A program made the translations under genes and the position numbers. A stretch of 64,000 nt of DNA from Catajapyx aquilonaris (Eukaryota): contig KZ537960.1 of assembly GCA_000934665.2 (NCBI GenBank), positions 186,001-250,000 of the forward strand, read 5' to 3'. Positions 948 to 62,908 of the stretch are shown in pieces (position 1 is the first letter of the stretch; every line of letters starts with the position of its first letter). The notes beneath the pieces were generated by a model that worked only from the letters and a program-made list of their open reading frames with translations, was not told where the DNA came from and did no database searches.

Positions 948-1583
948 TCAGACTCGCTTCTTGCCGTCCAGCACGTAAGTAAAGTCGTCTCCGTAATGGT
1001 ATTGAGCAGACCTGAGCATCCGGATCTGTTTCCAGGCACAAACAAGGAGAACAAAGTTGACTAGGTAGGTCGCAATGCACACGACACACATGCTCTGTAT
1101 TATGAAATACTGAATGTAGCCCAGGTAGAGTGACATTAAGTTGGACGCCACCGTCATGGCAAACCGGAGCCGAGCCACCCAAAGCCACGGCAACGGACCT
1201 GAAAGAAACCACGTTGAGCCTGGGACACACTTACGTAAAACAGACACTCACCGGTTGCAGCAAGGACGCAGTAGAAAATGATTCCGTAGAGGCTGTTGGG
1301 CTGGTAGAGCGACGACTTGTCCCCAACCACCTTGTTGACCACCCCGAACCCCTTGCCGTACCTGCAACACATTGTCCTGTACCTGGCACTAGTCAAATGC
1401 ACCTGCAACTCACTTTGACATGAAGTTAGCACTACAGCTGACACCAGGACTGATGTCGCACATGGGCGTGTATGTGACATCCTTCTCCATGGTGGTCTCC
1501 ACATGCAGGGCGTACACCGACAGCATCAGTCCTAGCACGCAGGTGACCAGGTGGACAGCGGTGGTCCCGCAGCAAGCAGACAT
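948..1583 (-). CDS. VKORC1: Vitamin K epoxide reductase complex subunit 1 (VKORC1/VKORC1L1 family), 3 exons, 176 aa
   Basis: Exons 1583-1414, 1361-1252 and 1198-948 join in frame through GT-AG introns of 52 and 53 bp. The protein has GLMLSVYALHVE, the loop cysteines (MCDISPGVSCS), YGKGFG, QPNSLYGIIFY and the redox motif CVVC, colinear with human VKORC1. AATAAA on the minus strand at 790-785. Confidence 0.96.
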
Positions 1584-2125: not shown

Positions 2126-2735
2126 TCATATCTCGGTGTAAGACTGTCGCCATTGTGGGGCTGTGTAACAGCATGGGCCAAAGACAGACACGAACATGAA
2201 TATCACACATGGGACTAGGACAAACCAGCTAAACAGTGATCCGGCGGTGGTTATCAAAATACAGTCTCGCCCGAATACTGGTGAGGGTGTGACCGGTGGT
2301 AACTCAGTTGTCGGCACTTCCGTCGTGGTCGTACCGGCCTCTCCATCAAGTGTCCAGTCGTCGTCGTACACGTAGGCCTCATACATAGGCGGTGGTGTGT
2401 TACCTTCAGTCCATAAGATGGGCTCATCATACCGGTACGAAGAAGACTCTGGTCGATGCACACTTCGCAGTTTGGGACCTACGTGACACACTGCGCTGTT
2501 GACGACCAGTACACTGATGACCACTGCTAACGACAGCCCAATTGCCTATGTGAGATATATATTAATTTATATAAACGACAGTATTAATTACAAAGTATGT
2601 ACTTACCAGAAAAATGGAGCATGGGAAATGTTGCCATCCACGATAAAAGCAGTTCGAAACAGGACCGGTACAGCTCTGTAAATGTAAAACGTCAAACTTC
2701 GTACACACGTGTCACAAGAATAAACTTACCCCCAT
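2126..2735 (-). CDS. Small 2-TM membrane protein, array member A (164 aa), Thr/Pro-rich loop, ends YTEI
   Basis: Exons 2735-2730 (ATG GGG|gtaagt), 2675-2607 (69 bp) and 2545-2126, all phase 0 with canonical splice sites. AATAAA at 2120-2115. Confidence 0.78.
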
Positions 2736-3863
2736 TTGGACCTCCGTTCTTGATTTCACGTCCACTCCTTAGGCTTTTGAGAGAATTTTTGGGTATGACC
2801 ACCGTATAAGTAGCTACTGGTATGTCACTAAATGACTAAGGCTCAGTCAGACGGGGCTGATTTCGGACAATATGGTCAGACCTTAGACTGACCCTCCTAC
2901 TGACTCAACATCATGCAGATGTCAGGGTCATCATTATTCATCTGATCCTATTATAGAGGCTACCGTACATATTACGACTTGTAAACATCAGATCTGTATG
3001 ACCTACATGTGTGATGTGTGTTGTATGTGGCAGAATCAAATTGCTCGGTGCATGCTTGAAAATATTTCAGTAGACGCAAACTGGCCTTGGGTGTCCTTGC
3101 ATTGAACAGGATTTTACAGCAGTGCAGGAATTTTTATGAGATTGTTTTCCCGGAAATTAACAAATTGTTAACATGCTGATTGGATACGCAACGATGCAAG
3201 TTGCGAATTATTTAGAGTGTTGTACTAGTCTGATTATTTAGTTGCAGTACATCGTAATTAGCATATGTATGAGGGTCTGGTACAGTACACAGTTGCTTCC
3301 CATATGTGCCATATCTCGGGAGAGGCCGGGTGGGGGGGGGGGNGGGGGGGTAGCAGAATAAAACATGATTTTGTTGCGAAAATTCTCCTTGTGAAAAAAT
3401 TGCACATTTCACAAGGCACGTAATATAAACCAATCCGCTTCAGTTTTATGATAGGGCTAGAAAATTCTGCAATTATGAATTTTTAAACGTTATTTTATGC
3501 GCACATTCGGTAAGGCAATGACTTCTTGAGAGTAGTGAACACGTAGGATGATGCACTTACATGAATGCGTCATTTTACAAGGTCAATAAATTGTTCATAT
3601 TTATAAATCGTATCTCATCAGTATACATTCCAAGTGAAGAATGATATGGTGCAAAACATTAAAGAGGCGGATTGCATTGTAGGAATATGCCAATTTTGAG
3701 GTGGTTTTGTGCATCATATGACTGCTGGACTTCTAGATAACAGCTATAAAAATAAATAACGGGAAAAACCAGATCTGCAACTATTAATGGCAGGAATAAA
3801 ATCAGGAAAATTCATTGCAACACACCAGTTTATTTCTGAGAGTTCAACATAACAATGTAGTGG

Positions 3864-4470
3864 TTATATCTGCTCATAATCCATCAAGTGCTTAGTCTCC
3901 TGATGTTCAACATTCGGACTACGGCACGCACTAACAAAAAAGGCGACCAGAGTGGTTGCAATCAACACAAATGCAAGCGCAATTGGGTACCCAAACATGA
4001 AGCATTTGGCACAGTCCGAGAGGATCTTGGCCCTATCAGGTATGTCGGTGTCGTTGCCGAAGGCGTTGCCGTAGTCCTCATCATGCCGTACTCTCATGTA
4101 TGGCCATATCGAGTGCATTATCGAATAGTCAAAGGGGCGATCTGGGAAGTTCAGGTCCAGGCAGACTACTGCTGACAACATAGCGACAGCAAGCAGCAAA
4201 AAAGGGAGCAGCACCTACATAAGAAATAGAAAAGATAAGTCAATTTTCAACAGTCATTTTTTAAAAATTTCAACACGTTTGTGAGAACCTACACACTTGT
4301 ATGCAAAATTCAACATGTGCAACTCACACTTACCGAACCAAAAGGGGATGAGAAATTCACGAACCCTCGAACAAAATAATTCTTCACGCCTTTACCCATT
4401 TTCTGAAACTAAAAAGAAAGTAAATTATTTGCTGTAATGGACACTACAATTGTTCTCAATTACTTACCAT
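3864..4470 (-). CDS. Small 2-TM membrane protein, array member B (140 aa), ends DYEQI
   Basis: Exons 4470-4468 (ATG|gtaagt), 4402-4334 (69 bp) and 4214-3864, phase 0/0. Exon 2 (VKNYFVRGFVNF) resembles member A (VSNCFYRGWQHF). NDT sequon in the loop. AATAAA at 3834-3829, TATA and Inr upstream. Confidence 0.82.
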
Positions 4471-4515
4471 CTGGCAGCACATTTTGAATCTGCGGTTAAT
4501 AGCCTGGATGTCAGT

Positions 4516-4543
4516 GACTGAAATCGGACATGAACCTTATATA
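4516..4543 (-). promoter_or_regulatory. Core promoter of array member B (TATA box plus initiator)
   Basis: Minus-strand TATATAA at 4543-4537, then TCAGTC (arthropod-type Inr) at 4521-4516, about 50 nt upstream of the ATG. Spacing is slightly shorter than canonical. Confidence 0.5.
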
Positions 4544-4672
4544 GCCTTCATCTTACTCATTCCTGATTATTAGAGGCACATCGGTCATTAGGTCACATAT
4601 GAGGTCACACATAGTCACTCACACAATCACAAATTAGCCGGTTTATTCATCTCAGTGTTACAAACATGACTT

Positions 4673-5153
4673 TTAACTCTGATGGTGCATCACACATAAG
4701 TAAAGGGCAAAGCCAAACGTAAAGAAAATTGGAAGGATTAAACAAAAGACAATCATTGCATTTGCCAAATTATTGAGCCAACAATTTTGGTCAGTTTCAG
4801 GAATAAGGTAGATGACTTCGTCAGATTCATAGTCTTCGCAAGACATGACCAATAAGACTGACAGGCTAAAGGCTGCTGCCAGGACGAAGCTGAAGATTAT
4901 CTGCAAACACAACACATGTCACAAAATTTTCAAATTGCTAAAATATTAGTACACACCGAAATTAATATAGCCCACGTTTGTTTTTGTATCGGAAATATTC
5001 TTCTGCTCATTTCTCCCTCCTGAAAAAGAAGGCAACAATTAGTGTCAGAATATTTCTTATTGTCCATTCATTTACCTCTGGTGTGCTGATGGGTGCCTGT
5101 GACAGATCGTGTGTACTCCTTACCGCATTCTGGTAGCTCATTTCGTACTCCAT
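4673..5153 (-). CDS. Small 2-TM membrane protein, array member C (122 aa), short tail
   Basis: Exons 5153-5076, 5019-4957 (63 bp) and 4900-4673, phase 0/0. Two hydrophobic segments flank an acidic loop bounded by Cys (MSCEDY...DQNCW). AATAAA at 4647-4642. Confidence 0.72.
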
Positions 5154-5603
5154 GCTTGTTTGGACTAAAAAAAAAACTGTAGTAATTACCACAAATGGTC
5201 CAATTTCTGCAGATGAAGTGAAACCAGTTAGAAAATGGTCCTCATTTTATATCGACAATTCTATCCCGTTATGCAGCTGAAACGTCACAATGCGTATCTG
5301 GTGGGAAGTTGGTGAAGCAGTGTCCAAGAGGATTAACTATTAGTAATCCTCTTGGGCATGGTGTATATGAAACACAGCATGATACATGCATGAATAATTT
5401 GCTTGCTCCCTATAGCATGTGTGCAGAGGCAACAATGAGTCGACTGTATTTTTGTCATTTTTTAAAATTGCTGACCAGTTGAACATATTGCCTATTTCTG
5501 AAATGTAAACAAACACTGGCTGTCACCACTGAACTTTCAGAAAATGTCAAACACAATGAATCCATCCAAATCACTTTTATTGCAGAATAATTTGACAGGA
5601 TTG

Positions 5604-6125
5604 TTAAATTTGCTCGTAGTTGTAGTCCGCATTGTTGCTGTAGAAATACCGCCTCTCATCGTCCAGTTGGCAAGTGCAGCAGCGGTAGCACAAATGGCAA
5701 CAGAACATGAGCAGTGGTATACCCAGGAAAGAAACGATGAAACTTTTCCAGCTGACTTCCAAGTAGCAGTCCGTCATGGAGTCAAATCGCATCGGGAACA
5801 AGCTCTCACGCTTTTGGTCAGTCCATGACGATGTGCTGGTACCATCCGGGTATTCTGCGGTACTGCAGATGGAGACGGTGGTGGCCAAGGCGCAGACTAA
5901 GATGACGGTCACTACGATGATCTGGAATATGAAACATATGTCAGAAACAATAGTAATATTTGCCTCGTACCTGTCGTACCTGTAGGATGGGGCACACCGC
6001 AGCCACAGATCTGTATGTCTCCTTCAGCTTCTCGACGAATTCTCGGAATGCCTGCAAAGGTGCAAGGAAGTTAATAGTTAAAAGGGTGTTTCTTTTGGAG
6101 GAAAATATTGTGAACCTACTTCCAT
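5604..6125 (-). CDS. Small 2-TM membrane protein, array member D (131 aa), Cys-rich tail, ends YNYEQI
   Basis: Exons 6125-6120 (ATG GAA|gtaggt, the least certain exon), 6051-5980 (72 bp) and 5921-5604, phase 0/0. AATAAA at 5581-5576. Confidence 0.76.
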
Positions 6126-7319
6126 TGCAGTCCTTCCTGCTGGATTTTTGGATGGATATTAAAGACCGAGGTATTCATACTACTGGAATTTATACCCCAC
6201 GATTATTAGGTTGAATGTATCAGAGATAGAGTCACGATTGGTGACTGGGTTTTGCGAAAGGAGAAGAAAATTATGGCACGCAGGCTACATAGGTGATTTG
6301 AAAAGGTGAGTAAGCTGTTGTGATTACCTTTTGTCAGGTTTTATGAGTTTCAGCTCGACTACACAGCTACCCCTGTAATTGCGCAATTATTTACATAGTT
6401 GGCAATTATTTGCTATAATAGCATTACCGACTATAATATAATATAATGTCCAACGTGATGTGCTTTGATTTTGTGGTAAAATCGAGAAGAGGGCGAGATG
6501 ATATTTTCCAACTTTTTTGTTCAAATTTTCAACTTTTAATTCAGTTACAATTATTGCTAACTAAATTTAATTCGTATTTTATTCTCAAGGTGACAAGGTT
6601 TTCTCGCGAACTGGCGCACCCAGGCCATATGTTTATATTTACGGGTAATAAATCTTTGGCATTTGTCTTCCAGCTTTTCCAACTCTCGGGTACACCAAAA
6701 TACCGATGCAAATTATAGGGTGGTCCGTAGCCTTCTCATAATAGGCAGGAAGCAGGGTTTGTTTTTGACCTACACTGTGGAACCAAATGCTGTACGGCTG
6801 CGTTCATTTTTGTCAATTTGTTCTCTGTAGTATATACTTTTGAGCCCAATGAATTGGTGTATACGGTGTTTTTTTAAAACCCATTTGTAAGTCAAGTGAA
6901 TTCATTTTCGATTCATCTAGTGTACAGATTCATGCCTTTTTTAAAATGGTGGGCAAACCTCAAACATTATCAGGCTTGTGTGCTGTACAGTACAAATGTA
7001 CGAGAATTCAACAAATGTTATGTAATTTCAGTTTAATTGTTTTTGTCCCTCGTGTCCATATGTGTAATCAAGTATGTGATATGTGACAACCAGTAGCACT
7101 TTTTGCTTTCTGAAGTTGAACGTTGTGTATTATGTATAGATGCTTTTTAATTTCAGTGTTGTTAATTTATGATATATGATCACCTGTGGAAGAATAAAAC
7201 CCTCATCATTTAGTCGCCCCCATATTACTGAAACTGAAAGCCAAATAACGCCAGTTTAAATCACTTGAAACACAGTACCGTATGTATCATAATATATTGA
7301 TTTATTTCACAAAGAAAAA

Positions 7320-7903
7320 TTACAAGACAGTATCAGCAGTGGGGGTGGTCTGACAAGATCTCTCGTATCTTCCATTACGGTCATCATATTTGTACAGAGA
7401 CCAAACGATAAGGACGCAGGGTACAAGCCAAAGGAATCCTAGGAACATGGCCAGAATGATGGCTCCAGAAAAAGGCACCGAACCATAGCAGTTCATGGCT
7501 CCAATCAGAGCCTCCTCTTCGCTCAGTGAGTAGTACAGGTCTTGCGGAGGTGACCAGCAAATCCAGTTCAGCATCATGATGGTGGTGAAGAATGACAACA
7601 AAAGGTGAATCAGGAACTGAAAAAATCAGACATGGTGGTGTCAATATTGAAATTGCTATTACAAAGCCTCACTGTCAATAATGACTTATTTCAATGAAAA
7701 GTTGGCACCCATACTGACAAATTTATAAAACCAATGTAGTTACCAGATAAATTGCGCAAATGGTGAAGACACGGACATCCCGAAACATGGTCTTGTTGCT
7801 GGAAGCACGAGCCTGCGAACATCAACATAAATTACATTCAAATTACACGCAAAAATCATCACAAATCACTGTCACTCACCCTAGCCACGCCACTCTCTCC
7901 CAT
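7320..7903 (-). CDS. Small 2-TM membrane protein, array member E (129 aa), ends DTVL
   Basis: Exons 7903-7880 (|gtgagt), 7812-7744 (69 bp) and 7616-7320, phase 0/0. TM2 LVPCV is shared with member A. Inr-like TTTCAGTT at 7920-7913. AATAAA at 7306-7301. Confidence 0.78.
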
Positions 7904-8278: not shown

Positions 8279-11200
8279 ATGGTGAAGGAGCTATTGTCGT
8301 CGACGTCGTCCCGGTCGTCGTCGGGAAGGGGGGAGGCGGGGACCCCAGGGATGAGGGAGACCAAGAAGAGGAAGAAGGCTCCCAGCAGCACCACCGGATC
8401 CGTCGTGGCCCCTCCAAAGGTGCCCAAGGGTGACGTCTACTCGGTTGGTTACATTTCCAGAGCATTTCCATCCTAAAAGAGTACCAGTTTAGCATGTACC
8501 TTGTGTTACAGGAGGTGATTGACTTTGAGGAAAAGGAAGCCTTGCGTCGGTCCCCAGAAAAGGATGTGTCGCTCTTCCACGACACTTGTGGTGAAATAAG
8601 CAAGCTGATGAAGGACATTCTGGAGCTGAAGCTGAAGAAAGGGGAGCACAGCCAGGCGGATATCATGGAGAAGCGGATTGCGGCTTCTCTTCACTTTGTC
8701 ACATTGAAGAAGCTGAATCGTCTGGAGAAGGTGCGGTTGAAGCAAGCCAGGGACACCACCAATGAGGCAAAACAGAAGGTGGACAACTACCATCTTACAC
8801 TGCAGAACCTGCTGTATGAGGTTATGCACCTTCAGAAGGAGGTCACAAAGTGCCAGGAGTTCAAGTCCAAGGATGAGGATATCGACCTTGTACCTGTGCA
8901 AGTTTTCTACAAGGAGGCCCCCGAGAAGATTTCTCGTCTAGTAAGTACACAGAGGGTATCATTGCTTGTCAGAATTGCTTACCAAAGTTATCAAGTTATC
9001 ACAAATTTGGTTGTGCTAAGCAGTAACTGCAAGTAGTCAACTCATAAAGGTTATAAATATTAATTGCTAATATACAGGGTGGTCCCCATGTAGTTTTTTG
9101 ATAGTATTCCTTGGTCCATAATTTTTTTTCAGTTGAGTCCTGACACAAATGATGAATCAAGGTATCACTGTACAGTATACAGGGTGAAGGGAAACTGGCG
9201 CCCAATTGCCAGGTAGTCTGATAGTACTCGCAAAACTAATATAGGGATGTGCAATTAGTTTTGGGCGCTGTTGCTTAGTGAATGCATACGGCACCTTTAA
9301 AGTTTCGTGACGTCACATCCACTCTGCCAGTTTCAAGGAAGCAAAAGCCAGCTCGAGGGCCTCGGAATAATCCAGCCTGGGTCCCTAACGCATTGTCCAT
9401 GTGCAATAGGCAATCAAATCCCATCAGAGTAAGAATCCAGGTGCGACACCTGTGCACTTTGTTGTTTTTACCCCATATTTTACCACTTGGCCCTCTACAC
9501 TTTAAAGGCGCCATACGAATGAACTACTCGCCAGCGTCCAAAACAAATTGCACATCCCTATATTAGTTTTGCGAGTACTGTCAGTCTACCTGGCGATTGG
9601 GCTCAAGTTTTCCGTCACCCTGTATACTCCGAAGGCCATAATGACAATGTACCTTTCAATATATTGTTAGCAGATGATATTCTATGGAAGTTACTGTGTG
9701 AAAGTAATAGCTTAAAAATTAGCAGCTTAATCCAAAAAATAACTTAATGAAACGAGGGAAACAGGTGATTCTTTTAGATCATCTGGTGTTAGCTGTGCCT
9801 GCCTTCACAGATTTTGTGCATGCCGATTACATAAGAGAGGCGAGACTTTTGTATATTGATATCAAACATTTTTATAGACTGTGACACAGAAGGACCCACA
9901 CCAGCTGAAGTTGGCACGCCTGGAGTGGGAGCTGGACCAACGGAAGGACTTGGCTGCAAAGTGCAAGAAGCTGGAAGAGTCCAAAGAATCTGTAGCGAAA
10001 GCTATCAGAGAGAAGCAGGAATACCTGGACAACTTGGCACCTAGGCTGAACTCAATATTGGAGGTTAACTTTCATATGTTTTTGTTAATCATCCTACCTT
10101 AGGTACTGGAGGGGCTGATTACTGTTGCTGACCATGGTACCAAATTGACCAAAGTTGCTTGTGTTTTAAGTCTTGGACATTACATTAGTTTCTTGGTTCT
10201 ATTCTGATGCATCTTATGCAGTGAAACTTTTATACTGAGGATTGGTTCATTCCTCAAAAAAAAAAAAAAAAAATGTACAGGGTGTGCTGCAGGTGGGTTT
10301 CACTGTATGTTTTTATCATAGTGGTTGATTTTCTAGGCAACAAAACCATTGCAAGAGTACCTGGAGATGCCTCTGGACAAGAATCGGATCCAGCATACTA
10401 TGGCCCAGTACTTACCTTGTGTCCTCTACACACTGTTTGTGCAGTGCAGTGCATATCAGGAAGCATGTGGTGAGTATCAATCTTTGCAGTTGTGATTATT
10501 TATAAAAATACTATTGCTTCCGGCTTGAATATTTCACTACAGGTGGAATTTCCAGTACGTGCTACACAATCAAGGGTTTTGATGCAAACTTAATGCTCAT
10601 TTCATTCGTTGGTGCAGATAAACTTTTGGAAGTGACTGTAGAAGGTGACTTGGAAGAAGCCAAGAACTTCCAACATGATCTCAATGAGGTGGGCCAACTG
10701 GCTGGAGGAGGGAGTGGTGGCGAAGGGGAAGGAGAAGGAGAGGAGAGCGACTCTGAAGGGGAAGGAGATGGCGAGGGAGGGGAAGGTCGAGAGGAAGGCA
10801 GGTCAGGGAGCAGGGCAAAGAAGAGGCACAGGAGGAAGAAGTCCCAGTTAGACCGTGTCCAGGAGAAAAGGAAAAAGCTGCTGACACCTCATCCCCTCTG
10901 GATCAAATTTGTAGTCAGGGTCAAAGGTTAGAAGAACATTATTGTGTTCAGGCTACATGTGCCCATTCTAATGAATGTTTTTCTACTTTCAGATGGGAAG
11001 AGCATGACAGTGAAGTTCTTCTATCTGGTCAGCTTACACATAGTGACTGCCAAATGTGACCTAAATATTGAGGCATCTCTCCTGAGAGGGTGAGTTATTG
11101 GATTTGGATTTTTAGAGACATGGCAATATGCTTTGAAGCACTGATGACTTCTAATGGTGGCGTATTTGGAGCTTCTCCATGTTATTTTGAAAACTTGATA

Positions 11201-12781
11201 GTTTCACATCAGTGCCGGCACTGGTGATCTGGTGGTTAGCGCGTTCCCCTCTAGACCCAAAGTTGCAGGTTCGAACCTGGGCGAGGTCGGTGACTTTTCT
11301 TTGGGTGGTAGAAAAGTGAGAGTACGCCTTCCTTCGGAGGGGAAGTAAATCCGTCGGTCCTGTGTGCTTGTGACATTACGCGAGTGCACGTTAAAGATTC
11401 CCAGAGCCGCCAAATTTCCAGGAGGAGGACCACTCCCTGGCGTCGGTGTTGAGCCTAGCAGCAGAAATAGGCCGACGTTAAGCCCCCACTAAAGTTTCAC
11501 ATCAGCAAGTGGGTATTTCTGTTCTCAGGGACATTCTAAGCAACGAGAGCATCTTGTCCTGCTTGTTTCCTGGTGACCGTGGCAGTGACAGCCCCAATGC
11601 TGGCAACTCCTTCCAGCTGAACCGAGTGGGCATAAGCAGCATAAAGGAGCACCTATCTGAAACAGGGGTACCATACCTGTGGGCCCAGCGCCTTGGAGGG
11701 CTTGACTTCTTACAGACAGATCCCACGTCCTGCATGGATGACAAGGGGGAATTCAAATCGAGGCCGGCTGTCCCTGCCATTCCTGACTCTACTCTGAGCT
11801 GCAGTCAGGTTGAAGGAACAGTCAGAGCCATTAGGCAGAGATTGCAGAGCAGGATTGCACTAGCCAAGCAAATGGATGCTTTTGGTGAGTAGGATCTCGT
11901 GTTTGATTCTTTTGCACGAGCACAGAGTGTCTGAAAATCAATGCAATGACGTTTGATGAAGGATTTGATGTATTATTTCCAACTTGATAAGGGTAAATTT
12001 TACACTTGCAGAGAAAGCCATCTTACCACCACCTCCATCACAACTAGCATCAATGTTCCCGGCCAAGGTGTTGTCGAAGCTTACCTCCTGGCGATCGGTG
12101 ACATGGGAAGAATTTGCGTTAAATCATCTGGCACGGAACATGGCCCTGGAAGTGGGTGTCATCCATCATGACTTTTTTTACCGTGCTGTCATGGAGAGAG
12201 GCAATGTGAAACTGGTTGCCCTCATTGCCATCAGACCAGGCTACCCCAGTGTTGCCCCCATATTTTCTCTGCAGCTATTGTGGGAAGGGGAGGCTGACAA
12301 GGAGAGGGATGCTCACAAGCATGATTCTTTGAGGGTACGTGCAATTGTTATCAGTTGATGAGCTGTACTGAGCAGTAATATTACTTGATTAACGTATGTT
12401 ATACATTGTTTTTGTCTTGAGGGTATTTGTGTGAACTTGACCTGATTTTAATGGCTATTTCGCAGGAGATGGAAATGGAGGTGAATGTCTACTGGAATGA
12501 GTTTAAGTCTGCGAAGGAGCAGCTGTTAATATGCCAGCTTCACCGGCTGCTGGCATGCCTGGATATATATGTGGAATCGGAAGGCGAATTGGGAACAGTG
12601 GAGAAGAATGAGTTTCCCAAAGAGAAGATTTTTTTCAAGGCTGTCAGGTAAAGTGTTTCGGTTCTTGCTGCTCCCCAGGAAATTTGAACTTGACCTTTCA
12701 CTGATCTCTTTCAGGGGAAGGAACCGAAGCAGGCCATTCAAGTTTTTGTCTGCTGGAGGAGGAATTTTTACCCAGCGCTGA
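8279..12781 (+). CDS. THOC5: THO complex subunit 5 (FMIP/THOC5), 10 exons, ~748 aa
   Basis: Exons 8279-8443, 8512-8940, 9878-10063, 10337-10469, 10618-10926, 10993-11089, 11529-11884, 12012-12334, 12466-12647 and 12715-12781 join in frame (2247 nt). Diagnostic segments: [57 protein letters not shown] and the C-terminal RGRNRSRPFK. The start ATG is the least certain part. Confidence 0.96.
9180..9622. mobile_element. MITE, Tc1/mariner-like, in THOC5 intron 2
   Basis: About 95-bp imperfect terminal inverted repeats with CAGGGTG...CACCCTG ends, TA on both flanks, no coding capacity. Confidence 0.85.
11213..11492 (+). mobile_element. tRNA-derived SINE (Ruka/Nin-domain-like) in THOC5 intron 6
   Basis: A-box-like TGATCTGGTGG, B-box GGTTCGAACC, body motifs CCTTCGGAGGGGAAGTAAA and GTGCACGTTAAAGATTCCC. 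Flanked by a perfect 13-bp target-site duplication AGTTTCACATCAG (11200-11212 and 11493-11505). The family name is from recalled motif similarity. Confidence 0.88.
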
Positions 12782-21815: not shown

Positions 21816-24156
21816 CCACCGCCGCGCCGCGTCGGTGAGGTATCGCCCCCTTCTCCCGCCTTCAGCGCTTGGCATCCCCGCCCGATTGTATGCCACTACT
21901 GCAGTTGTTAATAATTATGTCAGCTCATTTGTTCATACAAATACTTTTAAAAATATTTAAAAAATAATAATTGCTGTGTTGAACCCAGATGTTTCCAGAT
22001 TGAAAAATTCAACCATCCTTCCCATATTTTGCTCCGTTAATTCACCTTCCCCTTTAAATAAACCCTCAGATTATTATTAATGGTCCCCAACTTGAACCAC
22101 GACATTACACTTACGGTACCGGAACCAGTTTTGTGAACAGGTGATCAAATTAACCTAGATGGACCCGATGGGATTTAGGACGATTTTTGGTCGGTGTTTG
22201 GGAGCCCAAGAGAGGATTGTGTAACGGGGAATGAGAGAAGATTTCCTCTTTTTTTTACCCCCCGCCCCCCCTCTCTCACAATACCCCCTCTTTCGGTGTC
22301 TCTCCTAACAAATCCCAACCTTCCACCCAATTGGGTTGCAACGACGCGAACCAGCCGTAATCGGCATCCGTTTGATTCGATTTGCTACTTGGGCGCGACT
22401 TGTCACGTGTATAGTATAGTATAAGGTAGAACCAACATTTTTTTTATATATAGAACCCTCTCATTTACATGCATGTCGTAAACCTTGCAACATCGCCCCT
22501 ATTAAAAGGCTGTAACAATCGTCACTTGATTGTTGCCCGCGGTTAATTATTCGCGCCCTTTCATCCTGGGCCAAGTCTAATAAACGCCTGGCCTCAGTGC
22601 CTCTAATTCACTCTTTGACCTTAATCTTCTGGGTGGATACAGAAAAAAAAAGGCTATGGGCAATAAGAGGATACAAAGAGATACGGGTTGAGGACGTGAC
22701 TTGAGGGGGATTGTCGCGTCACGTGGACTTTACGCAGGATTTTCGCACAAGTTCGGTACTAAGTTAGAGCTGGATGTGGAAAAGGGTTTTACAGTAGTCG
22801 ACAATTCAAGCTACTGAAAATTGTAAAATAGGATACCATACTGTTCAGTGTTCGTTGGGTTGCATCATGCCAGGATGAATAAAAGTTGAGGTGGAAGAGT
22901 ACCTTTTGAATATGGATACTAGGTTGCATAAATAAATACAACACTGCAGCCAACTCCACATATTTAACCACGGTGAAATTAGCATGTTAATTAAATACAG
23001 GCTGTTTCAAAATTGACTTACGGTTGTTTTAAAAAATTCATGCGTAGCCTCTGCTACAATATGCACTGTGCCTTACTGTGTTTTTGAAAATATATTTATA
23101 ATATTAAAAACTTATAATGTAATATTTCACCTTTGTGGGTCACACCCAACCAAAATATGACCTGGAGTAACTCAGTTTGGACAAACAGAGTATAACAAGT
23201 GTCAACCCAAGTTGTGTAGATTCAGTGCTGACGTCACGGGTCTGGTGTCAAGGGGCGGCCAATTAGGACGGAACAAGGCCTCATTTCGGCCATGGGAACG
23301 CTCAGGTGGTAGCCGGAACAAGGTCTGGCACTCCGGGCCTGCAGGCTCTTTTTCATCAATCGTCATTAAGTGTGTGACAAGGGACGACGCCCTGTTGTCC
23401 CCAACTAAGCATCTTAAAAGTATAGAGTTTTCGACACATATTACAAAAATAGGGTGTTGATTAATTGTCATTAATTTTGTATTTGGAGCACCAGGCGGCA
23501 ACACAGTCATCGGGTTGTAGCTAGCTAGATTTTTTTTTCCCCCTCTTCGTTTTTTTAATTACCAAGCTGCCCCCCTGGCAAGCCCAATCAGCCCCCACGC
23601 CCTGTCCCATCCCCATTGGCCCAATTCGTCCAAATTCAATTCATTAAGCCGGGTTGAGAGCCAGCCAGGGGAATTTACCGGCTTGCGAAAAAGTCTGGTC
23701 CCATACACACATACACATATCCCCCACCCCCTCCAACCCTCAGACCCACCGGACCTCGAAACGTACACACACACACACACATTCACATGCCACATGTTCG
23801 CGGCTACCCAACCAATCTGGATCCCCGGGCTTTACAGCCGCCCCTCATTCCCTCAATCGGGCCAAAGAAGAGAGCAGCCACTTCAATAATGGCCCAATAA
23901 CAGCGTTACAACAACTCAGCATGCAATTTTCATTCAGTGTCCGCCGAAAGGGCCCACAATTTAAGCAGAGTGCAGCGGCCTGAGCTTTTAAAGGGATAAA
24001 CCAACAGGGTGGAGCAACAACAGGTATCATCAGTCAGGATGTCTCTTACATGTAGGATGTCCAATAGTAGCTACATTTAATTTAGATTATATTTTGAACA
24101 CTTTTAATACGAACAATAACTAAAAATCTGCACTAGTGGCCTACATACGATATAGA

Positions 24157-24351
24157 ACTCGTATATGACTCGTATATGACTCGTACACGACTCGTATGCG
24201 ACTCGTACACGACTCGTACACGACTCGTACACGACTCGTACACGACTCGTACACGACTCATATACGACTCGTACACGACTCATATACGACTCGTACACGA
24301 CTCATATACGACTCGTACACGACTCGTACACGACTCGTATACGACTCGTAT
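24157..24351. repeat. 11-bp minisatellite (GACTCGTACAC), about 17 copies
   Basis: Head-to-tail units with variants such as GACTCATATAC and GACTCGTATAT. Confidence 0.93.
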
Positions 24352-27300
24352 AGGACACTATGCACTGTGCAATTCAATTTTATCACATTTTTTGACCAAT
24401 GTTTGTATGTAAATTGGTTCACCCTGTGTTTGGGTAAAAAGTGGGGTTGTGTCCAAGCCGCAATCACTCTTCATGTGTCCAGTGTTGCCTCTCTCGAAGC
24501 TTTCAGCATGGACACATCCAAAAAAGTCAGGCATTCCACACCCGACCCTAACTAACTTTTACAACAGTTGCATAGTTTCATTAAGGTCTGGGCTACGCGG
24601 CTAGCTAATGTGAATTGATTTTTCACAATGTCGTGTCTCCCCATTTGCCAGATGCTGCACTCACGTACTCGCTAAACACGAAAGTGACATGTGATTAAAT
24701 AACAACCTAATTACACCCCGTTAAGTGTGACAACTCTGACCGTAGACCCGAAAAATTATTCATGGAAAAGGGCCTTACTAACTACGCAATGTTGCCACAC
24801 TTCTAGAGTGGTTATTTAATCATGGAGGTGATAAATGTGATGTGGCCTAACCTACCTTTAAGGGCGGCCTAGGTAGGATGTATGAGACACCTTCCACCTT
24901 TAGCCCTTAGTCTTCCCTATCGTCATCATCTTCAGAACTAAATTTTGAACGACAGTCACGCCAGGGTGTAATCAAGCCTTACCTCTGGTGCCAACTTGGT
25001 CGTCCTTCATTTCCTGTAAGTGCTTTCTTTTTTCGGCTGTCAAAAAAATATTACTCCTCTTATTTAAGCTTTCCTTTCAACAACACTTTTTTGCAAAGAG
25101 AAGCTCTTGTCAGCCAGACCGCCTAATTCGATCAACTGTCTAAAGCAGTAGTTTGTAAGCTGAGAAATACGCATGTCAAAAAATGTGTTCTACATTGATC
25201 CATTAATTTGTGTTGTACTATGCCACCAAGGGTATTCATGAATAATTAAATGAATAAACACCATATACACAATAGCTGCAAATACCACACCATGCTTAAC
25301 TGAAAAATTACCAAAAAATGGTAAAAAACGAGGGGGCTGATGTTTATCGTGCAGAAGAACCCCGGGGCCAGAGAAGCGTGGGATGAGTGTACTGCACCGC
25401 TGTATACAGCCTGCGAAAGGATAGCAAAAGAGCTGGGGACTGGAGGGCAGGGAGGGGGATGGATGCGATTCGTCGAGAGCTCCAAGGCACGCTGGAAATT
25501 CCATCAGTACAGTGGAAATTTCAGCAGCGCGGTGTAAACCCTCCGCCGGGCATTCCAGGCAGCCAGCTTACCTCACAAGTCCAACAGCAGCAGTGCCCTC
25601 ATCAATTTTGCACCTTGCCACATTCAAGATGTAAAGCCGTCATACATATAGCGCTGGGAGTACGGTCAATATCCTAGGCTCCATCAGCCAGCGCCTGCCT
25701 ATATGAGTGTATTAAAAGTCAGTCAAAAAATATCTGAAGTCGTCCAAATCCCAAGGCGTCGCCATTGTAAAGGACCATTGACTTGAGGGAATTTCATATG
25801 CGTTATTTGCATCTAATTGGGTACTGCACAAATGTCAATGTCCATATGTGGCTTTTGAATTTTGATGGGGACATCCATGGGTATAGGCCGGATGATTTGG
25901 TCCTGTTTGACAAAATAGCTAGAGCGTGTGTTTTTTCGCTCACAGTCCAGCAGCGAGGGAACGACCATTTGAGCTAGAGTAATAGGCTTAGAGTTGAACG
26001 GTGCAGTGTGCCGGGTAAAACTGAGGTCCGCCACCGCGTCAACGACACTTCACATGCCTTCTGGGTCCATCTCTGGATACTTACATGTAAAACCAAACGT
26101 GACTTTTCATTCGGTAAAGTACTAGCCGCTGTTTATTTTTGGGCGATCAAATAGTAAAAAAATAGTGAAGAATCGCAAAGAGCTGAAGAAGTCTTTGATG
26201 TTCGGATGGACATAGCGGAAAAGCTGAGTATGAAGAGACCTGCTGGCACTGACTTTTTTGCCTTTCAAGAGTTGGACAGGTCGTATTTTCAAGAAAAAAT
26301 GTCTTGACAGGGTGTACTTACTGCAATGTCATCTGCAGATATAGCCAAACTAGTTTACTCCAAACCTAATTTATTGGGCGAGATTTTTACAAAACAAAGC
26401 CAAAAATAATATGAAAAACAATAAATTACAGGGTACTTTCTATTCTCCATTAATAGGTATTAGATGGTAGACGAATGGTGGGCGAGTGACCGAGATACAT
26501 GGCTGCCTAAACATGGATTTTCTTGCCCCGAGTTTCAGCAATAAATCTCACTGTGGATAAAGCACGATTGTAATTCCGGAGATGACAACGCCGTTATCGG
26601 AAGTACACCACCGCAGCTCTCTCTCTAGCTCCAAAATCATGCTGGTTTTTTTATTCATAAAAAAATGAGCGATGAGTATAAATCTCGCCTTTTTGCTTAA
26701 ATGTGAGCATCTACAAGATGGATTGTGGTGTTTAAGCCATACCATGGCTACACCTGGCCAATAACACGCCTCAAAAGTAGAAATTATTTTGCTGTAACTT
26801 TCTGTTTGCTTTTAATTTGCGCTCAAGTTTTATACTCCTACAATCATTAGCATGTTTATGATCGTGACCTATCTTCACTTTGTTATTCTACCCCCATAAA
26901 ATCTTCACCTTTCGTCCCGCCTAAAGCCATATAGTAATTGCCCCTCAACTTGCAAACTACCTAACTTTCAAAAGATACCCTACAATTTTAACTAATAAAA
27001 AATAGTATGACGTATTAGTTTCAGGCAAGCAAACACTGTTCTTGCAGTAATAATTTAACTATATTACTTTCCTCGCTGGCACTGTTTCCTTTTCTGGAGC
27101 CAAATGAGTCCGCAGCACCAGCACTGTTTATACGTGTGGGAGCGTATGTATACACACTATATGGTAGAGGCGTCGTAGCGTGTGAGAATCATAAGGGACG
27201 CATCCGGCTGGTTAGAATGATAATAATACAGACACACACACAAAAAATTCATTTTTAGAGAGCACCCTAGGGTAGGGAGTAAGGGAGATTGGAAATATAT

Positions 27301-36070: not shown

Positions 36071-38277
36071 CTGTGTATCCTAGTCACTGCACCCAAAAAA
36101 TGCAAAGGATTCGTGAAACTCTTTGCACACCGTTACCTTAACCAACGGTGTTCCGCATTGGGGTGCATACCGAGGAAAAGGGTGGCACCACGATTAGCGG
36201 CCGAGTTTAATGGCCCCCCATACCGGATGGCGCTCCCAGCTCACCGCCTTCGTTATCGTTATTTTCCCCCCGCCTTCCCCCTCATAGCCAGATTTCCCCT
36301 TTTTGAGGGTTCACTCCCAGGGGAGGGCAAATTTATTAGCCAGAGTTGGGCGGGGTCGACCGGAAGTGGATCTAGAATATTTTTTGATGGATGACGTCAT
36401 ATTTGGACAGCTTCCGGACACGGATCTGTCTCTCCGGATGGGTCGTTTGAAACGGGGAAGTACCGGCTGTATCCGATGTTACCATTTAGAGAGAAAGGCC
36501 TGTTTCCACACGTGCAATTAATTCTGTTTATGCCACAATTTCATTTCGAGCCAACTGTCCATTGACGCTGGGCAACTCAGGCTATAAAACCCAATTGACC
36601 CTAAGTCTAGGACGGGGTTCTCTCGATTTTGCAGAAAATGTGATGGCGGAGGGTGAAAAACTACAATTGGGGTGTGTTGGTAATGTGCAGAAATACCGGA
36701 GCTTGGAAACTTCTAATGAACTGCTTCATGGGACAAACTTTTATTCGGAGCGTGAAGTTATCGCACATGCTAATGAATTACGTTGTTCTGTACAAAAAAA
36801 CTAAAAAAACGAGCTTGAACGTACCGTTAGATGGCGGTGGTGACAGTCACGACATCTAACGTCTGTCCAGTAAACTACAGTAGTTATATCAACTGAAAAC
36901 AACTGGGTCAGAAATTTTTGCAAACGAATCACGTAACTCGTACAGGGCACTCCTCTCGCAGCTTTGATTTGATGCCTAGAATGAGAACCAAGTAATACAA
37001 TTTGCGTCGATCAAGCGTGACAAAAAAGTAGCGCATATAGCTATTTAAGAGAATTAAGCCAGGAATTGAAGAGACCCGTCGCTAAGGTGGCTCAGAGATA
37101 TAAACTCATGGATGAAGGGGCATTCACAGCCACGGGGACAATTTGGCTAATGAAGTATCGCTGTGACTGAGGTGAATTTCCAAGTACGGCAAGAATCTAT
37201 TGTTCTTGCAGACGAGCCGTATCCAATTATCATACGATTACTCTTAATGAAAACAAGGATTTGCTTCCCAAACCTTACAGAAAGTACCCCCAAGGTTTTT
37301 TTGAAAAAAAGAAAAAAAAACTTTACAAGTGCTGCGATAAATTGTTTTTATGCAGTCTCATGGGGAAACTCGATTTCTCCCATGCTTCAAGTTCCTCTTA
37401 TTCATTACCAAACTTTAAGTACTGTTGCTGAATTGTGCCATAATTGAATTGAGTAAACACTCGAGAAATGAGCGAATTCCAGCGTCCCATCAATTAAAAC
37501 TTATTGAAATGTGAGGGAATGAATGGAGTCCTTTAATTAATTAGAGGGGTTGAATCACTGTTTTGTGACCGTCTTTTGGGTTCAGGTAAGCGCTGGATAA
37601 GCGGCACATATATTATGTAACTCTGTTTTCAGCGGTTTTTGACCCTCTGAAATTCAACCGTGCAGCACATTATAACACTTAGTCCTCTCCATTGCAGCAC
37701 ACTGTAACGTTTAGCCCCAACTCCTAATGCCCAAGTTCACAAAGTTAGCGGTCAGATTGTGCTAAGCGTCTCCTCATAGCTACTTTTAACCCGCTTATCA
37801 GAGTGGCTCCAACCGCAAAAGTGAAGTAGTTTTACAATAAATTCTACCACTAGGACATATGTGGGTTCCATCATTTACTCCACTGCACGTGCGTAATTCT
37901 GCATTGCGCCGTGCGATACCCGCGCAGAGAGTGATCCAATTTGATACGTCCCCAACAGTGTCAGTTTAAGTGTAACAGTAAACGATATACGGCCCCTGGA
38001 AATAACCGCTGATTACGGAATCAATTTCGCCTCTGGGCACATTTATAATATCGCTGCTATTAACCCTTAGATTGTGGTTCCGTCAGATGGAACCAGTGGG
38101 TGCCAGTGGCTCCATCTGGCATCAGAGTGACTGGCGTTGTTTTCTATCCCGCAGAGTGGCAATCGTGGGGCTTTGGCAGCCGGTCCTTGTGGGCGATGAG
38201 TGCAAGTGGATAGTGGGTGTCGAGTGAGTGGTGTGGCATCGTGATCCGGATGCGGAGGATCTGAGCCCCTGGACCTA

Positions 38278-41200
38278 ATGGAGAAGGCGGCTGCGGCTGG
38301 GGCGTCCGGGGGACCCGGGCCGCCCCATGCCGTGCCATTTGTGGTGCCCCCGCTGCCCAGGGGCTGCTCACCCAAGATGGTCTTCAGCAACCTGGGAATC
38401 TGCGCTCTGCTACTTGGCTACACCTTACTGGGCGCCTTCCTCTTTCTGGCCATCGAAGGAACTCACAACCATAGACCCAGCCCACCTCCACAACCCAGGA
38501 GGCTCAACGTCACTGCTGCGCAGGTACCCAATGAACGCAGACATAGAAAAATTGTCCCAAGCTTTTGTCCTGCAGTTTGTAGTGAGCGAACATAAATCAT
38601 TCTGACACTCTAATCAGGGTTTGAGCATATACTTGAACGGTGCTTAACAAAGTAGAACTAAAAAAAAAAAAAGGATGGCTCTGAAACATGTAGCGTCGGA
38701 CGGAATTGTTATGCTATCAACAAAATTGCTGCCAGGAGGACAATTCACTTTTAAGTCTTCTTATCGGCTATGTGCCCCTTTTTTGTCCTGGTCTGGAGGG
38801 ACAGGAGTCGCAGGATTCTGTACTGTGTCCAGCCATCCGGACAAACTGGGCGATTCAAGACAATGTTGTTTGGAGCGATTGTGATTTGCCGCTTCTCGAG
38901 TTTCGGATTGAACCAATGCCAAGTGCTGCTCAAGGCGCCTTCTGCATCAGATGGGACGCCCCGCTTTGTTGATGACGTATTCATGAAACTTCCCTAGAGA
39001 TCCTGTCACGCTATGCAACTGTTTAGCAATTGATCTTCAGCAACAGAGAGTAGTCCAACATGGAACGGTGAGGGATAACCCTCCGATACTCCATGGAGCA
39101 CATTTACATTCAATGAATGCCGGTACATCGTAGGGCTCTGTAGTTTGAGGTCTTGATACCAAATAAGTGAGTGAATTAAAACACCGGTAAGCTCTCCCTA
39201 AAATTAATGAGGCGAGTATATCCTCCAGTTATGGGGAAAACTGTTGCTATATTTCTCCCTCCCGGATAGGTTTACTTATTATAATTGGCCTTTCCTCCCA
39301 CCACCGGCCTACACTTTCGCATTTTATTGGCTTAGTTTTATATACAGTCAGCACAGCTGTGGTTGTACGTAACTGCTCATAACTCGGCCAAGTCGCCTGG
39401 TAATTAGCATGGGGCTACTGCTATTAAAATGACAGAAAGAAACGCTGGGGGCGCATCACGTGAGACTCGTTTGTGCAGCTTTACAGCTTACTGGTCACCG
39501 CACACAATGCAATATGCCAGCAGTTGTGGTTTGTCCTTCCGGTCACTTATTCGGGTAATGGATGCAGAATAAAGGGCCCACGCAAAGTAGCCACTGAGCA
39601 TCCCAAGCCCCTCTGCTCATTACTGTTATAGGTGGAGAGCTGGGTGCAGGAGACGCGGAACAGGACAGTGGAAAGCATCTGGGACATCACAGTCAGTCTC
39701 AACATTTTGTATGGAGAGAATTGGACCAGACTGGCCACCTCGGAGATACTCAAGTTCCAAGACTTTTTGATCGAGCGACTCAGTCAGGAGTTGACCGCAC
39801 CGGTTGAGGTACCAGAACCACCTTTCCAGTGGACATTCGCAAGGGCTTTCCTCTACTCGCTGACCACCCTCACCACCATTGGTAAGTCGCAAATTTTGTC
39901 AAAGAAAGTACGACACTACTTTCTCGCCTCCAGTGCTCTCAATTACACAGTCTATTAGTGCCCCTTCAACTGTTAGCCATTACTCACTCTGTAGTTAGGT
40001 TGACAAAAAAAAGCCCCATAGGTTTTGTGCCCAAAAACTTTCAGATGCATTTAAAATATTCACAGTGCATCCGGCTGGAAATGGCTACAATTTCATTGCT
40101 CATACTTCCTGTCATGGTCTGTGGGGCGGTGGGTGGGATGATTCTTAGTTGCACATTGCGGTCCCCTTCCTGCACTTTATATTTTTTTTGAACATTTTCG
40201 GAAGCCTTGTTTCTCTTTGGTCGAGTCATTTTCCGCCAGATTTACGACGCTATTTGTATCCACGAGTTTTTGGGGGGCTGGTGATTAACTATGCTCAGAG
40301 TTCATTCACGTTCAAAAGTCCGTTTTTTTGTTCGTATTTCCACACCCTTTTATAAAAAGAATTTACAGTATGTGTCCGGCAATTTTGCACATCTGTATTA
40401 TTTTCAAAAAAATTTCAAAAAATATATAGAGACAGCACTTGAGGCACTTTTGGTCTCGAACTACGGCAATGTGCGTCTACAAAATCCACTTTCCTGCGCA
40501 AAAGTGTGGTAAGCGGTTGACATAGAGTGAGGCTTGATTGACGGTCTGTCTTTCAGTCCAAAATGGGTCTAATGGACTTTCTGGCATGGGTTAAAAATTG
40601 GCCTCCAGTGACCCGAGTTGGTGCGGGCGGTTAGGTGGTCGGGGAGGGGGTATATCCGAAACGGTACGGTACCAAAAGTTGGCCTCTTTTCTCCCCTACG
40701 CTCGTTCCATCATTTTTAATTAATTTTTAGCCCAAGTTGCGCCTTCTTTGAGCGGTTTCACGTTCCGTCATACACGGACATATCCTGAAATACTTTCTTC
40801 CACCCCCCACCCCTGTTACCATAGCCTAAGTAATAAAACGCCTTCACGACCAAACTTTGTGAGAGCAAACTCCTTGGAAAATTCTTTCTTTTTTAATCCC
40901 AGGCTCTTAATTAAAGCTGCGTTTGGAAAAGAAACGATGAACTGGGCAACGGAGCGTTAATTACAATGCACCCGATGGAGGTTTCAGCATTTCGGCACTC
41001 AAATTTACGACGTCTCCGATTGCTCAAGTATTTCAAAGGAAGGAAAATGGCGGGAAAAAAACAAGACAAAGGAAAAAATGGGGTCTGGAGCCAAAATGGA
41101 GTCACCCCCTCGGGTATCCAAAAAGATGCCTTTCCTAAACTTTCTTTTACGATGGAAAGACCGTTACCCGGATGAAGAACTCGGCCCAGCTAATTTTATG

Positions 41201-62200: not shown

Positions 62201-62908
62201 CTAGATGATGGTGACCTTAAGGACAGCTGCGGAACACCAGTCACCATGACGCCGTCGACGCCTCTCGACGCCTCCAGACGGATGCTGGCCGTGGCCTCTG
62301 CGGCTGCGGCGGCCAGTTCATCCGGATCCCTGCTGCTGCCGGCCGTGGTCTGCGCCGCTGCCATGGCCGGCTACCTGCTTCTTGGAGCGGTGGTGCTGGC
62401 TCGGTGGGAAGCCTGGGACTTCCTAGAACGAGCCTACTTTTGCTTCATGGCTCTCAGCACCATTGGATTTGGAGACCTGCTGCCAGGGGACTTGCCATTG
62501 CCTCCCACCAGGTAAAGCACTCCACTAAAGATTTTTTGGGGACATACAGAGGTCGTGTTTTCTCACTACAGGCAAGTACTGGAGGGCAGCCACAACATGA
62601 GCACCATGGTGATACGCGTGCCGATGGGTGGCCCCAGCACACCCGGATCCGGAAGTGCGGAGTGGTTTTGTTCCTTCTACATCCTCCTGGGCATGGCCCT
62701 CACCGCCATGTGCTTCAACATCTGCCACGAAGAGCTGGCCCATCGGGCTGCCAGTGCGGCGGCAGCTTCTTCAGCAGCCGCAGCAGCCGCCGCCGCCGCC
62801 GCAGCCGCCGCGGCCCAGCAGTCCTCCAGAATGCTGGCCGCCACCGCCCGAGGCCCTCCACCTCCTCCGCCCATGGTCACCCGGCGTCCAGACGACTCCT
62901 ACTCCTGA
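38278..62908 (+). CDS. Two-pore-domain (K2P/KCNK, TWiK-family) potassium channel, 4 exons, ~481 aa
   Basis: Exons 38278-38523, 39632-39881, 61899-62511 and 62572-62908 join in frame (1446 nt). M1 [14 protein letters not shown]1 [21 protein letters not shown]2 [14 protein letters not shown]2 [15 protein letters not shown]4 [13 protein letters not shown]. Additional upstream exons cannot be excluded. Confidence 0.94.
41530..41662. repeat. Degenerate inverted repeat (old MITE-like hairpin) in the K2P intron
   Basis: Ends ATCCTGACTATTCA and TGAATAGTCAGGAT, with partial internal complementarity. Confidence 0.55.
42256..42300 (-). repeat. (TTAGG)n tract, 9 units (arthropod telomere-type pentamer)
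   Basis: (ACCTA)9 on the plus strand. Confidence 0.9.
53303..53346 (-). repeat. Degenerate (TTAGG)n tract, about 9 units
   Basis: Imperfect ACCTA run on the plus strand. Confidence 0.8.
58939..59016. repeat. 17-bp tandem repeat (GACTACACCAGTCGTAA) x4, bounded by the inverted motif GTCTCACGACT/AGTCGTGAGAC
   Basis: Units start at 58946, 58963, 58980 and 58997. The outer 11 bp form a perfect inverted pair. Confidence 0.8.

Follow-up and report, generated by a model that had tools for sequence, protein, structure and literature searches.

We describe an array of five small genes, here called A to E, all on the minus strand and flanked by VKORC1 and THOC5 in the genome of Catajapyx aquilonaris (GenBank assembly GCA_000934665.2, contig KZ537960.1, positions 186,001 to 250,000; this whole stretch of 64,000 nucleotides (nt), numbered from its first letter, is the window referred to throughout). 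The array appears to be real and uncatalogued, and its members probably form a single old family, the kind of which is broadly known. Our preferred reading, to which we give a probability of about 0.42, is that these genes may form an old tandem family, encoding hairpin proteins that are stapled by a disulfide and travel through endosomes or lysosomes in an accessory or adaptor role.

According to this reading, A to E would be separate genes, probably expressed, that arose through old tandem duplications of a single ancestor with three exons, and each product would be a small membrane protein folded as a hairpin, its two ends lying in the cytoplasm. Exon 2 would supply an amphipathic N-terminal segment, followed by helix 1, an acidic loop of 16–70 residues on the outer or lumenal side, helix 2 and a short tail. 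At the base of the loop, a cysteine at the outer end of helix 1 might pair in one disulfide with a [D/N]-Cys just ahead of helix 2 and, since the bond would staple this base, the length and sequence of the loop would be free to vary. The terminal YxxI of A, B and D might bind the mu subunits of clathrin adaptors, allowing cycling between the surface and endosomes or lysosomes, and the tail cysteines near this motif would probably be palmitoylated. The products could thus serve as accessory or escort subunits of other membrane proteins, the loop and helices picking the partner of each paralog. Gene structure, hydropathy, the two-helix fold and the positions of the motifs are what the analysis establishes; gene status is well supported by the sequence and paralogy moderately, and function, together with expression, topology, the disulfide, palmitoylation, sorting and partners, is a matter of inference.

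Gene models and evidence for gene status

The genes are modelled with three exons each (Table 1), in a window whose genome is spliced and where introns of 50–150 nt are abundant. Exon 2 measures 69, 69, 63, 72 and 69 nt in A to E, and the ten introns, of 54–127 nt, are all GT-AG and all in phase 0. The junctions are predictions, with 2–14 other open models also possible per gene, and the acceptor of gene E at 7812, rejected by a pyrimidine filter, was placed by reading the sequence and afterwards checked and scored. When sites were scored with a weight matrix trained on the 11 introns modelled in THOC5 and VKOR, 19 of the 20 splice sites of the array ranked within the top 7% of all such sites in the window (7408 GT and 7481 AG), the exception being the weak intron-2 acceptor of gene A (top 39% of the AG sites). 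An AATAAA lies 5–29 nt past the stop in all five genes, while 1.7–4.1% of background windows of 36 nt contain one (p <= 1e-7).

Base composition and codon usage point in the same direction. Exons have a higher G+C (GC) content than introns in every gene (0.41–0.52 versus 0.28–0.37), and in four of the five the synonymous-codon score lay beyond the 95th percentile of the scores of 130 background open reading frames (ORFs), under a non-coding codon model trained partly on the same background ORFs, which slightly favours the genes. A canonical TATA box lies at most 100 nt from the ATG in B, C and D (p about 0.003–0.03, with a background frequency of 7–16% per 100 nt), and E has a variant. A blind terminal-exon scan of the window returned 35 open candidates, among which two hydrophobic segments appeared only in B to E, as did AATAAA; gene A was absent from this set because its acceptor is weak, and the scan found no other gene of the array type elsewhere in the 64 kb. 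A first-pass annotation made from the letters alone had proposed five minus-strand three-exon genes between VKORC1 and THOC5, with a second exon of 63–72 nt between two phase-0 introns and an AATAAA close to the stop, and all of this held: the frames are open, all splice sites but one strong and the flanking genes confirmed by Pfam.

Taken together, these data make it very likely that A to E are real genes. The codon score of gene C, which falls within the background, counts against this, and with the weak last acceptor of gene A it is what favours chance open frames or decayed pseudogenes. Such an origin is extremely improbable, since five frames are intact and similarity at the DNA level is gone, yet splice sites, poly(A) signals and motifs have been kept. 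A single shared transcript with alternative exons was also ruled out, because each unit is equipped with an ATG and a poly(A) signal of its own.

Table 1. Modelled genes of the array, their putative signals and the two flanking genes (window positions; exons separated by slashes)
Feature	Position	Strand	Remarks
Gene A	2735-2730 / 2675-2607 / 2545-2126	-	164 amino acids (aa), three exons, open frame
Gene A poly(A) signal AATAAA	2115-2120	-	5 nt past stop
Gene B	4470-4468 (or from ATG 4482) / 4402-4334 / 4214-3864	-	140 or 144 aa
Gene B poly(A) signal AATAAA	3829-3834	-	29 nt past stop
Gene B TATA-like box	4538-4543	-	followed by initiator-like TCAGTC
Gene C	5153-5076 / 5019-4957 / 4900-4673	-	122 aa
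Gene C poly(A) signal AATAAA	4642-4647	-	25 nt past stop
Gene C TATAAA	5246-5251	-	30 nt upstream of initiator-like TCACTT
Gene D	6125-6120 / 6051-5980 / 5921-5604	-	131 aa
Gene D poly(A) signal AATAAA	5576-5581	-	22 nt past stop
Gene D TATAAA	6189-6194	-	
Gene E	7903-7880 / 7812-7744 / 7616-7320	-	129 aa
Gene E poly(A) signal AATAAA	7301-7306	-	13 nt past stop
VKORC1-like flanking gene	948-1583	-	three exons, 176 aa; Pfam PF07884 (VKOR); context only
THOC5 flanking gene	8279-12781	+	ten exons, about 747 aa; PF09766; context only

Protein anatomy and topology

Judged by hydropathy, the five proteins follow the same order of parts, namely an N-terminal segment, helix 1, a loop, a proline-containing helix 2 and, last, a tail. 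The N-terminal segment contains an amphipathic stretch (hydrophobic moment 0.57–0.71). Helix 1 is a long hydrophobic stretch that runs across intron 2 and begins 17–43 residues into the protein; that it might be a cleaved signal peptide instead of a membrane helix was considered and, given this length and start, seems somewhat less likely. The loops span about 16–70 residues and hold more D/E than K/R in every protein, and the tails span 5–31 residues, with 1–5 cysteines in those of A, B, D and E. The first loop cysteine is found where helix 1 ends on the outer side and is residue 20, 18, 21, 19 and 20 of exon 3 in A to E, and the second lies just before helix 2, preceded in all five by Asp or Asn. 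The proline of helix 2 is at Cys+17 in A, C and D, at Cys+9 in B and at Cys+23 in E. AlphaFold models of the exon-3 products are helix-loop-helix, with a predicted local distance difference test (pLDDT) of 76 and a predicted template modelling score (pTM) of 0.45 for C, and a pLDDT of 66 and a pTM of 0.36 for D.

The individual proteins differ mostly in loop and tail. In A the loop, of about 70 residues, includes a Thr/Pro-rich stretch as well as Cys45 and Cys120, and the tail has a Cys-Cys and ends in YTEI. The loop of B carries Cys42, Cys92 and Cys95 (140-aa numbering) and one N-glycosylation sequon, and that of D carries Cys45 and Cys78 ahead of a Cys-rich juxtamembrane tail; both proteins end in YEQI. 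C has the shortest loop of the five (Cys68 and Cys87), a tail that is nearly nil, no tyrosine motif and the weakest codon signal. E, with Cys51 and Cys74 in its loop, ends in T-V-L, a class I PDZ-like terminus. A terminal Y-x-x-I is thus found in A, B and D. Read from the ATG at 4482 (4482-4468), gene B would start with Met-Cys-Cys, and gene A (2735-2664) starts with Met-Gly-Ser-Cys; both starts are possible N-terminal lipidation sites.

The common order of parts proposed in the first-pass annotation stood as regards the two helices, the acidic loop and the helix-2 proline, which occur in all five; the basic N-region did not, that of C being acidic, and the register of the proline is shared by A, C and D only. 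The YEQI it had seen in B and D proved to be the C-terminus of both, while the terminal YTEI of A and the conserved cysteine pair had been overlooked. The cysteine pair and this terminal YxxI of A are the best clues to mechanism. Acidic loops and weakly basic N-sides would place both termini in the cytoplasm; the two loop cysteines would therefore face the oxidising side and could staple the loop. We consider this topology with its disulfide, as a joint claim, to be fairly likely.

Relationship among the five genes

We find it likely that A to E are members of one family, whose duplications would then be either old or followed by fast divergence. The support comes from features anchored to the exon plan and to the helices. 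The [D/N]-Cys is the rarest class-dipeptide common to all five within the 20 residues before helix 2, with helix 2 set by hydropathy alone and Cys zeroed, and an equally rare pair was found in 0 of 5000 shuffles; the same test after helix 1 and over the last 8 residues gave nothing common to the five. The first loop cysteine falls at residue 18–21 of exon 3 in every protein, a result matched by 246 of 20000 local shuffles, and a terminal YxxPhi in at least three of the five arose in only 2 of 20000. A Cys-x16-Pro block runs ungapped across A, C and D (0 of 60 shuffles, in a region picked after inspection), and exon 2 of A and B agrees in register at 6 of 23 residues (59 of 20000 shuffles, the best of the ten pairs). 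Intron number and phase are identical in A to E, and intron positions are approximately shared.

Several results weigh against this view. An all-against-all comparison, suggested with the first-pass annotation as a check, put none of the ten pairs above window or local shuffles, either by BLOSUM62 alignment of the whole proteins or by hhalign (probability <=3%), and leave-one-out profiles recognised the fifth protein in no case out of five, 38–276 of 300 shuffles scoring equally well. Five-way ungapped blocks were marginal, being equalled by 2 of 60 shuffles each, in B and E the proline is off register, and relative to intron 2 the first cysteine drifts by up to 3 residues. Neither blastn nor a repeat search detected similarity among the five units at the DNA level. 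The paralogy put forward in the first-pass annotation is thus borne out by the anchored features ([D/N]-Cys, first cysteine, YxxI, exon 2 of A and B, exon plan) and not by whole-protein alignments or leave-one-out profiles.

The negative outcome of every whole-protein test, the failure of B and E to keep the Cys-x16-Pro register, and the presence of a sixth, single-helix ORF of different plan next to the array would all fit a situation in which the genes are real and not all of one family, with A, C and D related, A and B linked through exon 2, and one or more of the others being unrelated small membrane genes whose layout is similar by coincidence. We regard this as very unlikely, as the exon plan and phases are identical, exon 2 stays within 63–72 nt and the [D/N]-Cys recurs in all five, and no such gene occurs elsewhere in the 64-kb window.

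Sorting, partners and alternative functions

The case for an endosomal or lysosomal itinerary comes from the tails. PMC5297682 describes (G)YxxPhi motifs in cytosolic tails that clathrin adaptors recognise, gives YEQF for the C-terminal signal in LAMP2, and presents CD63 and LAPTM4b as small polytopic proteins that escort partners to lysosomes, with palmitoylation involved for CD63. The likeness of A to E to LAMP1/2, CD63 and LAPTM4 lies in a tyrosine motif that forms the very C-terminus (in B and D YEQI, versus YEQF in LAMP2), in juxtamembrane cysteines and in a possible escort role (PMC5297682). However, A to E have two helices, not one or four, and lack a Gly before the Tyr, a LAMP domain and a tetraspanin CCG loop (no Pfam match), and the motif is missing in C and E. 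A sorting function for YxxI has, in our estimate, a slightly better than even chance.

Further observations run counter to the preferred reading at this point. No Gly stands ahead of the Tyr, which lies 12–27 residues from helix 2, and in B and D this distance exceeds that of LAMP-type tails. Since C and E are devoid of the tyrosine motif, sorting cannot be the function of the whole family. On the side of topology, the net charge ahead of helix 1 is only +1 to +2.

The general layout recalls a different class of proteins. PMC3240667 describes TipE/Teh and BK-beta (KCNMB) subunits as having two hydrophobic stretches that tether an extracellular loop with putative disulphide bridges; in A to E two helices likewise anchor an outer loop with cysteines, whose disulfide would be analogous, and the arthropod TipE/Teh paralogs also form a tandem cluster (PMC3240667). 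This gross architecture and clustering would suit auxiliary subunits of channels or transporters, in which the helices would pack on the channel and the loop would tune gating or surface delivery. The array products are nevertheless much smaller, in protein and in loop, show no detectable sequence match to these subunits, contain a single cysteine pair and no EGF-like domain, and in three cases bear a terminal YxxI. Under the PDZ consensus, the T-x-I end of A and the T-x-L end of E might, in such a role, also bind PDZ scaffolds. That role appears quite unlikely: the exon-3 products gave no Pfam match to such families, for which Pfam includes TipE and CaKB models, and no PDB sequence matched the profile; the loops of C, D and E, with 16–34 aa and two cysteines, are far below those of BK-beta, of about 120 aa; and the two-pore potassium channel gene of the window lies over 30 kb from the array, to which nothing ties it.

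A role in recognition, of an immune type, would give the loops another purpose. Here the loop would bind outside ligands and a phosphorylated, palmitoylated tail (D-Y-x-Y-E-Q-I or D-Y-E-Q-I) would recruit SH2 proteins, C acting as a decoy. The extreme divergence of the loops on a fixed scaffold, the mucin-like loop of A, the TATA-type promoters, which suggest regulated expression, and the resemblance of YEQI and YTEI to SH2-binding motifs are consistent with such surface proteins. We nonetheless find this improbable, given that there is no paired immunoreceptor tyrosine-based activation motif, that the residue at Tyr-2 (Q, M or Y) misfits the consensus of the inhibitory counterpart, that the loops of C and E (16–22 aa) are very small for a receptor, and that neither recent duplicates nor likeness at the DNA level are seen, signs that would usually accompany an immune array with rapid birth-and-death evolution. 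Nothing in the analysis points specifically to the gamete or immune role suggested by the first-pass annotation.

Ninjurin and IFITM/CD225 proteins are also small and, as in A to E, have an amphipathic segment ahead of two hydrophobic ones, and IFITMs are palmitoylated and have a tyrosine sorting motif. The array products differ from them in having no Pfam match, a long acidic loop bracketed by cysteines between the helices, and a tyrosine motif that is C-terminal. A to E have a layout like that of TipE/KCNMB and a tail motif like that of LAMP/CD63 but disagree with each of these groups in sequence or topology, and we therefore place them in no known family. It is even conceivable, as a long shot, that they belong to an undescribed arthropod family of minimal 'stapled-loop' proteins, in which a hairpin scaffold closed by one disulfide would display loops that vary freely, and swappable tails (YxxI, PDZ-like or none) would route or signal a bound partner.

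Searches for relatives

Homology queries were the exon-3 products, compared with sequences of near length only. Exon 3 of A gave no match among 17 candidates in the 90% protein clusters and no confirmed relative among 356 pattern matches in metagenome contigs, while the five-sequence profile, which finds its own members at E 1e-28 to 6e-12, matched none of 3340 candidates in the 90% clusters. Against 1.84 billion representatives the same profile gave two weak matches; P0121, a 728-aa repeat protein free of membrane helices, was rejected, and P0122 was set aside for its size (4428 aa) and its 18 stretches. The exact look-up of five Met-started exon-3 pieces found none in the protein collection. 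Pfam-A and NCBIfam gave no family at cut-off for any of the five, only sub-threshold hydrophobic matches, and no PDB sequence matched the profile at E up to 10. Claudin_3 (PF06653) was discarded as a candidate, for D alone matches it (14.2 bits versus a cut-off of 28.7, E 0.044) and has two helices, not four; the claudin GLW signature is not present in D. Foldseek found no structural match to the exon-3 models at E <= 0.001, and the best VIA-align Z values, 5.6 and 7.7, lie within the usual range for helical hairpins; the fold searches yielded generic hairpins and coiled coils. In the literature searched, mostly freely accessible papers, we found no published description of the five genes. The statement that A to E match no known family was therefore sustained across Pfam, NCBIfam, protein clusters, metagenome contigs and PDB sequences.

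The reach of these searches was short. Out of 40 simulated relatives of each of A to E, 39, 34, 8, 38 and 5 were found at 70% identity, 34, 7, 1, 26 and 1 at 60%, and 9, 4, 2, 7 and 0 at 50%, which sets the reach of the profile search above about 70% identity for A, B and D and at 80–90% for C and E. The THOC5 protein of the window matches proteins of vertebrates, insects, Daphnia, a tick and amphioxus at 54–70% identity (120 matches listed), and the collection thus appears to hold no close relative of this animal. Since THOC5 has no match above 70% among those listed, one would expect small and variable membrane proteins to escape detection, and their orphan status is weak evidence of novelty. 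The restriction to one lineage assumed in the first-pass annotation is accordingly not established, as the profile search recovers simulated relatives only above these identities.

The genes could in consequence be extremely diverged members or fragments of a described family, missed through homology detection failure, which according to PMC7660931 accounts for many insect lineage-specific genes. The short reach and the THOC5 identities fit this possibility, as does the ESM Atlas, which sets exon 3 of C beside unnamed eukaryotic clusters of 74–102 aa at 0.94–0.95, a feature score that involves no alignment; the nearest named cluster, at 0.81, is PF06011 (TRP), a name carried by 18% of its members and unmatched by hmmscan. 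One lead would be a helix-Cys-loop-Cys-helix unit cut from a larger multi-pass eukaryotic membrane protein. Still, no family of Pfam-A or NCBIfam reached its cut-off, the Atlas comparison is free of alignment and its top clusters have no family, and exon 3 of D has different and weaker neighbours (<=0.88), for which reasons we consider a diverged known family unlikely.

Genomic setting

Gene E and THOC5 are arranged head-to-head, with a divergent promoter region of roughly 375 nt between them. This region contains three copies of GTTGGCAAC (window 8085, 8160 and 8185), which is not found on the plus strand of 14000-64000 and which we take to resemble an RFX-type half site. Among 15 THOC5-bearing metagenome loci of 1–20 kb, none showed a VKOR or array match (best E 0.39), most of them being too short or too distant. 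A functional tie of the array to VKOR, a disulfide-related enzyme beside proteins that would bear disulfides, was dropped, adjacency being its sole evidence.

Some other features of the window were recorded. Exon 5 of THOC5 (about 10690-10830, plus strand) codes for a Gly/Glu-rich low-complexity stretch, and the modelled protein, of about 747 aa, compares with 670–720 aa in most full-length matches. Intron 2 of this gene holds an inverted repeat with 130-nt arms (9174-9303 and 9499-9628), 85% complementary and 195 nt apart, that resembles a miniature inverted-repeat transposon. Exons like those of two-pore potassium channels (Pfam Ion_trans_2) lie at about 38245-39958 and 61799-62908 on the plus strand, apparently separated by an intron of more than 20 kb, and a tandem repeat at about 24137-24555 (plus strand) shows recurring open frames with a 12-residue unit and is probably non-coding.

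Next to the array, a plus-strand ORF at 1907-2086 would encode 59 aa with one membrane helix. Its GC content at third codon positions is 0.72 and its codon score of 0.11 exceeds those of all 130 background ORFs; a GT-AG intron of 53 nt (1852-1904) directly precedes its ATG. The orientation is head-to-head relative to VKORC1 and tail-to-tail relative to gene A, and since the first plus-strand AATAAA is at 2719, the 3' untranslated region of the ORF would overlap gene A in antisense. This ORF is a probable sixth small gene of different plan; it had no Pfam match, and an exact look-up in the protein collection was empty.

Significance

That small membrane proteins occur in a divergent tandem array is not very surprising in itself, and the value of this one hinges on the identity of the partners. 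If expressed, A to E would be five unannotated genes, probably forming one uncatalogued family whose members have little in common beyond two cysteines, an exon plan and a tail motif, and the array would provide a clean example of a family that lies beyond the reach of standard homology searches. Should the 'stapled-loop' reading be true, the family would have been overlooked because its genes are short, spliced and fast-diverging, and its members could act as micro-adaptors for the sorting or recognition of membrane proteins.

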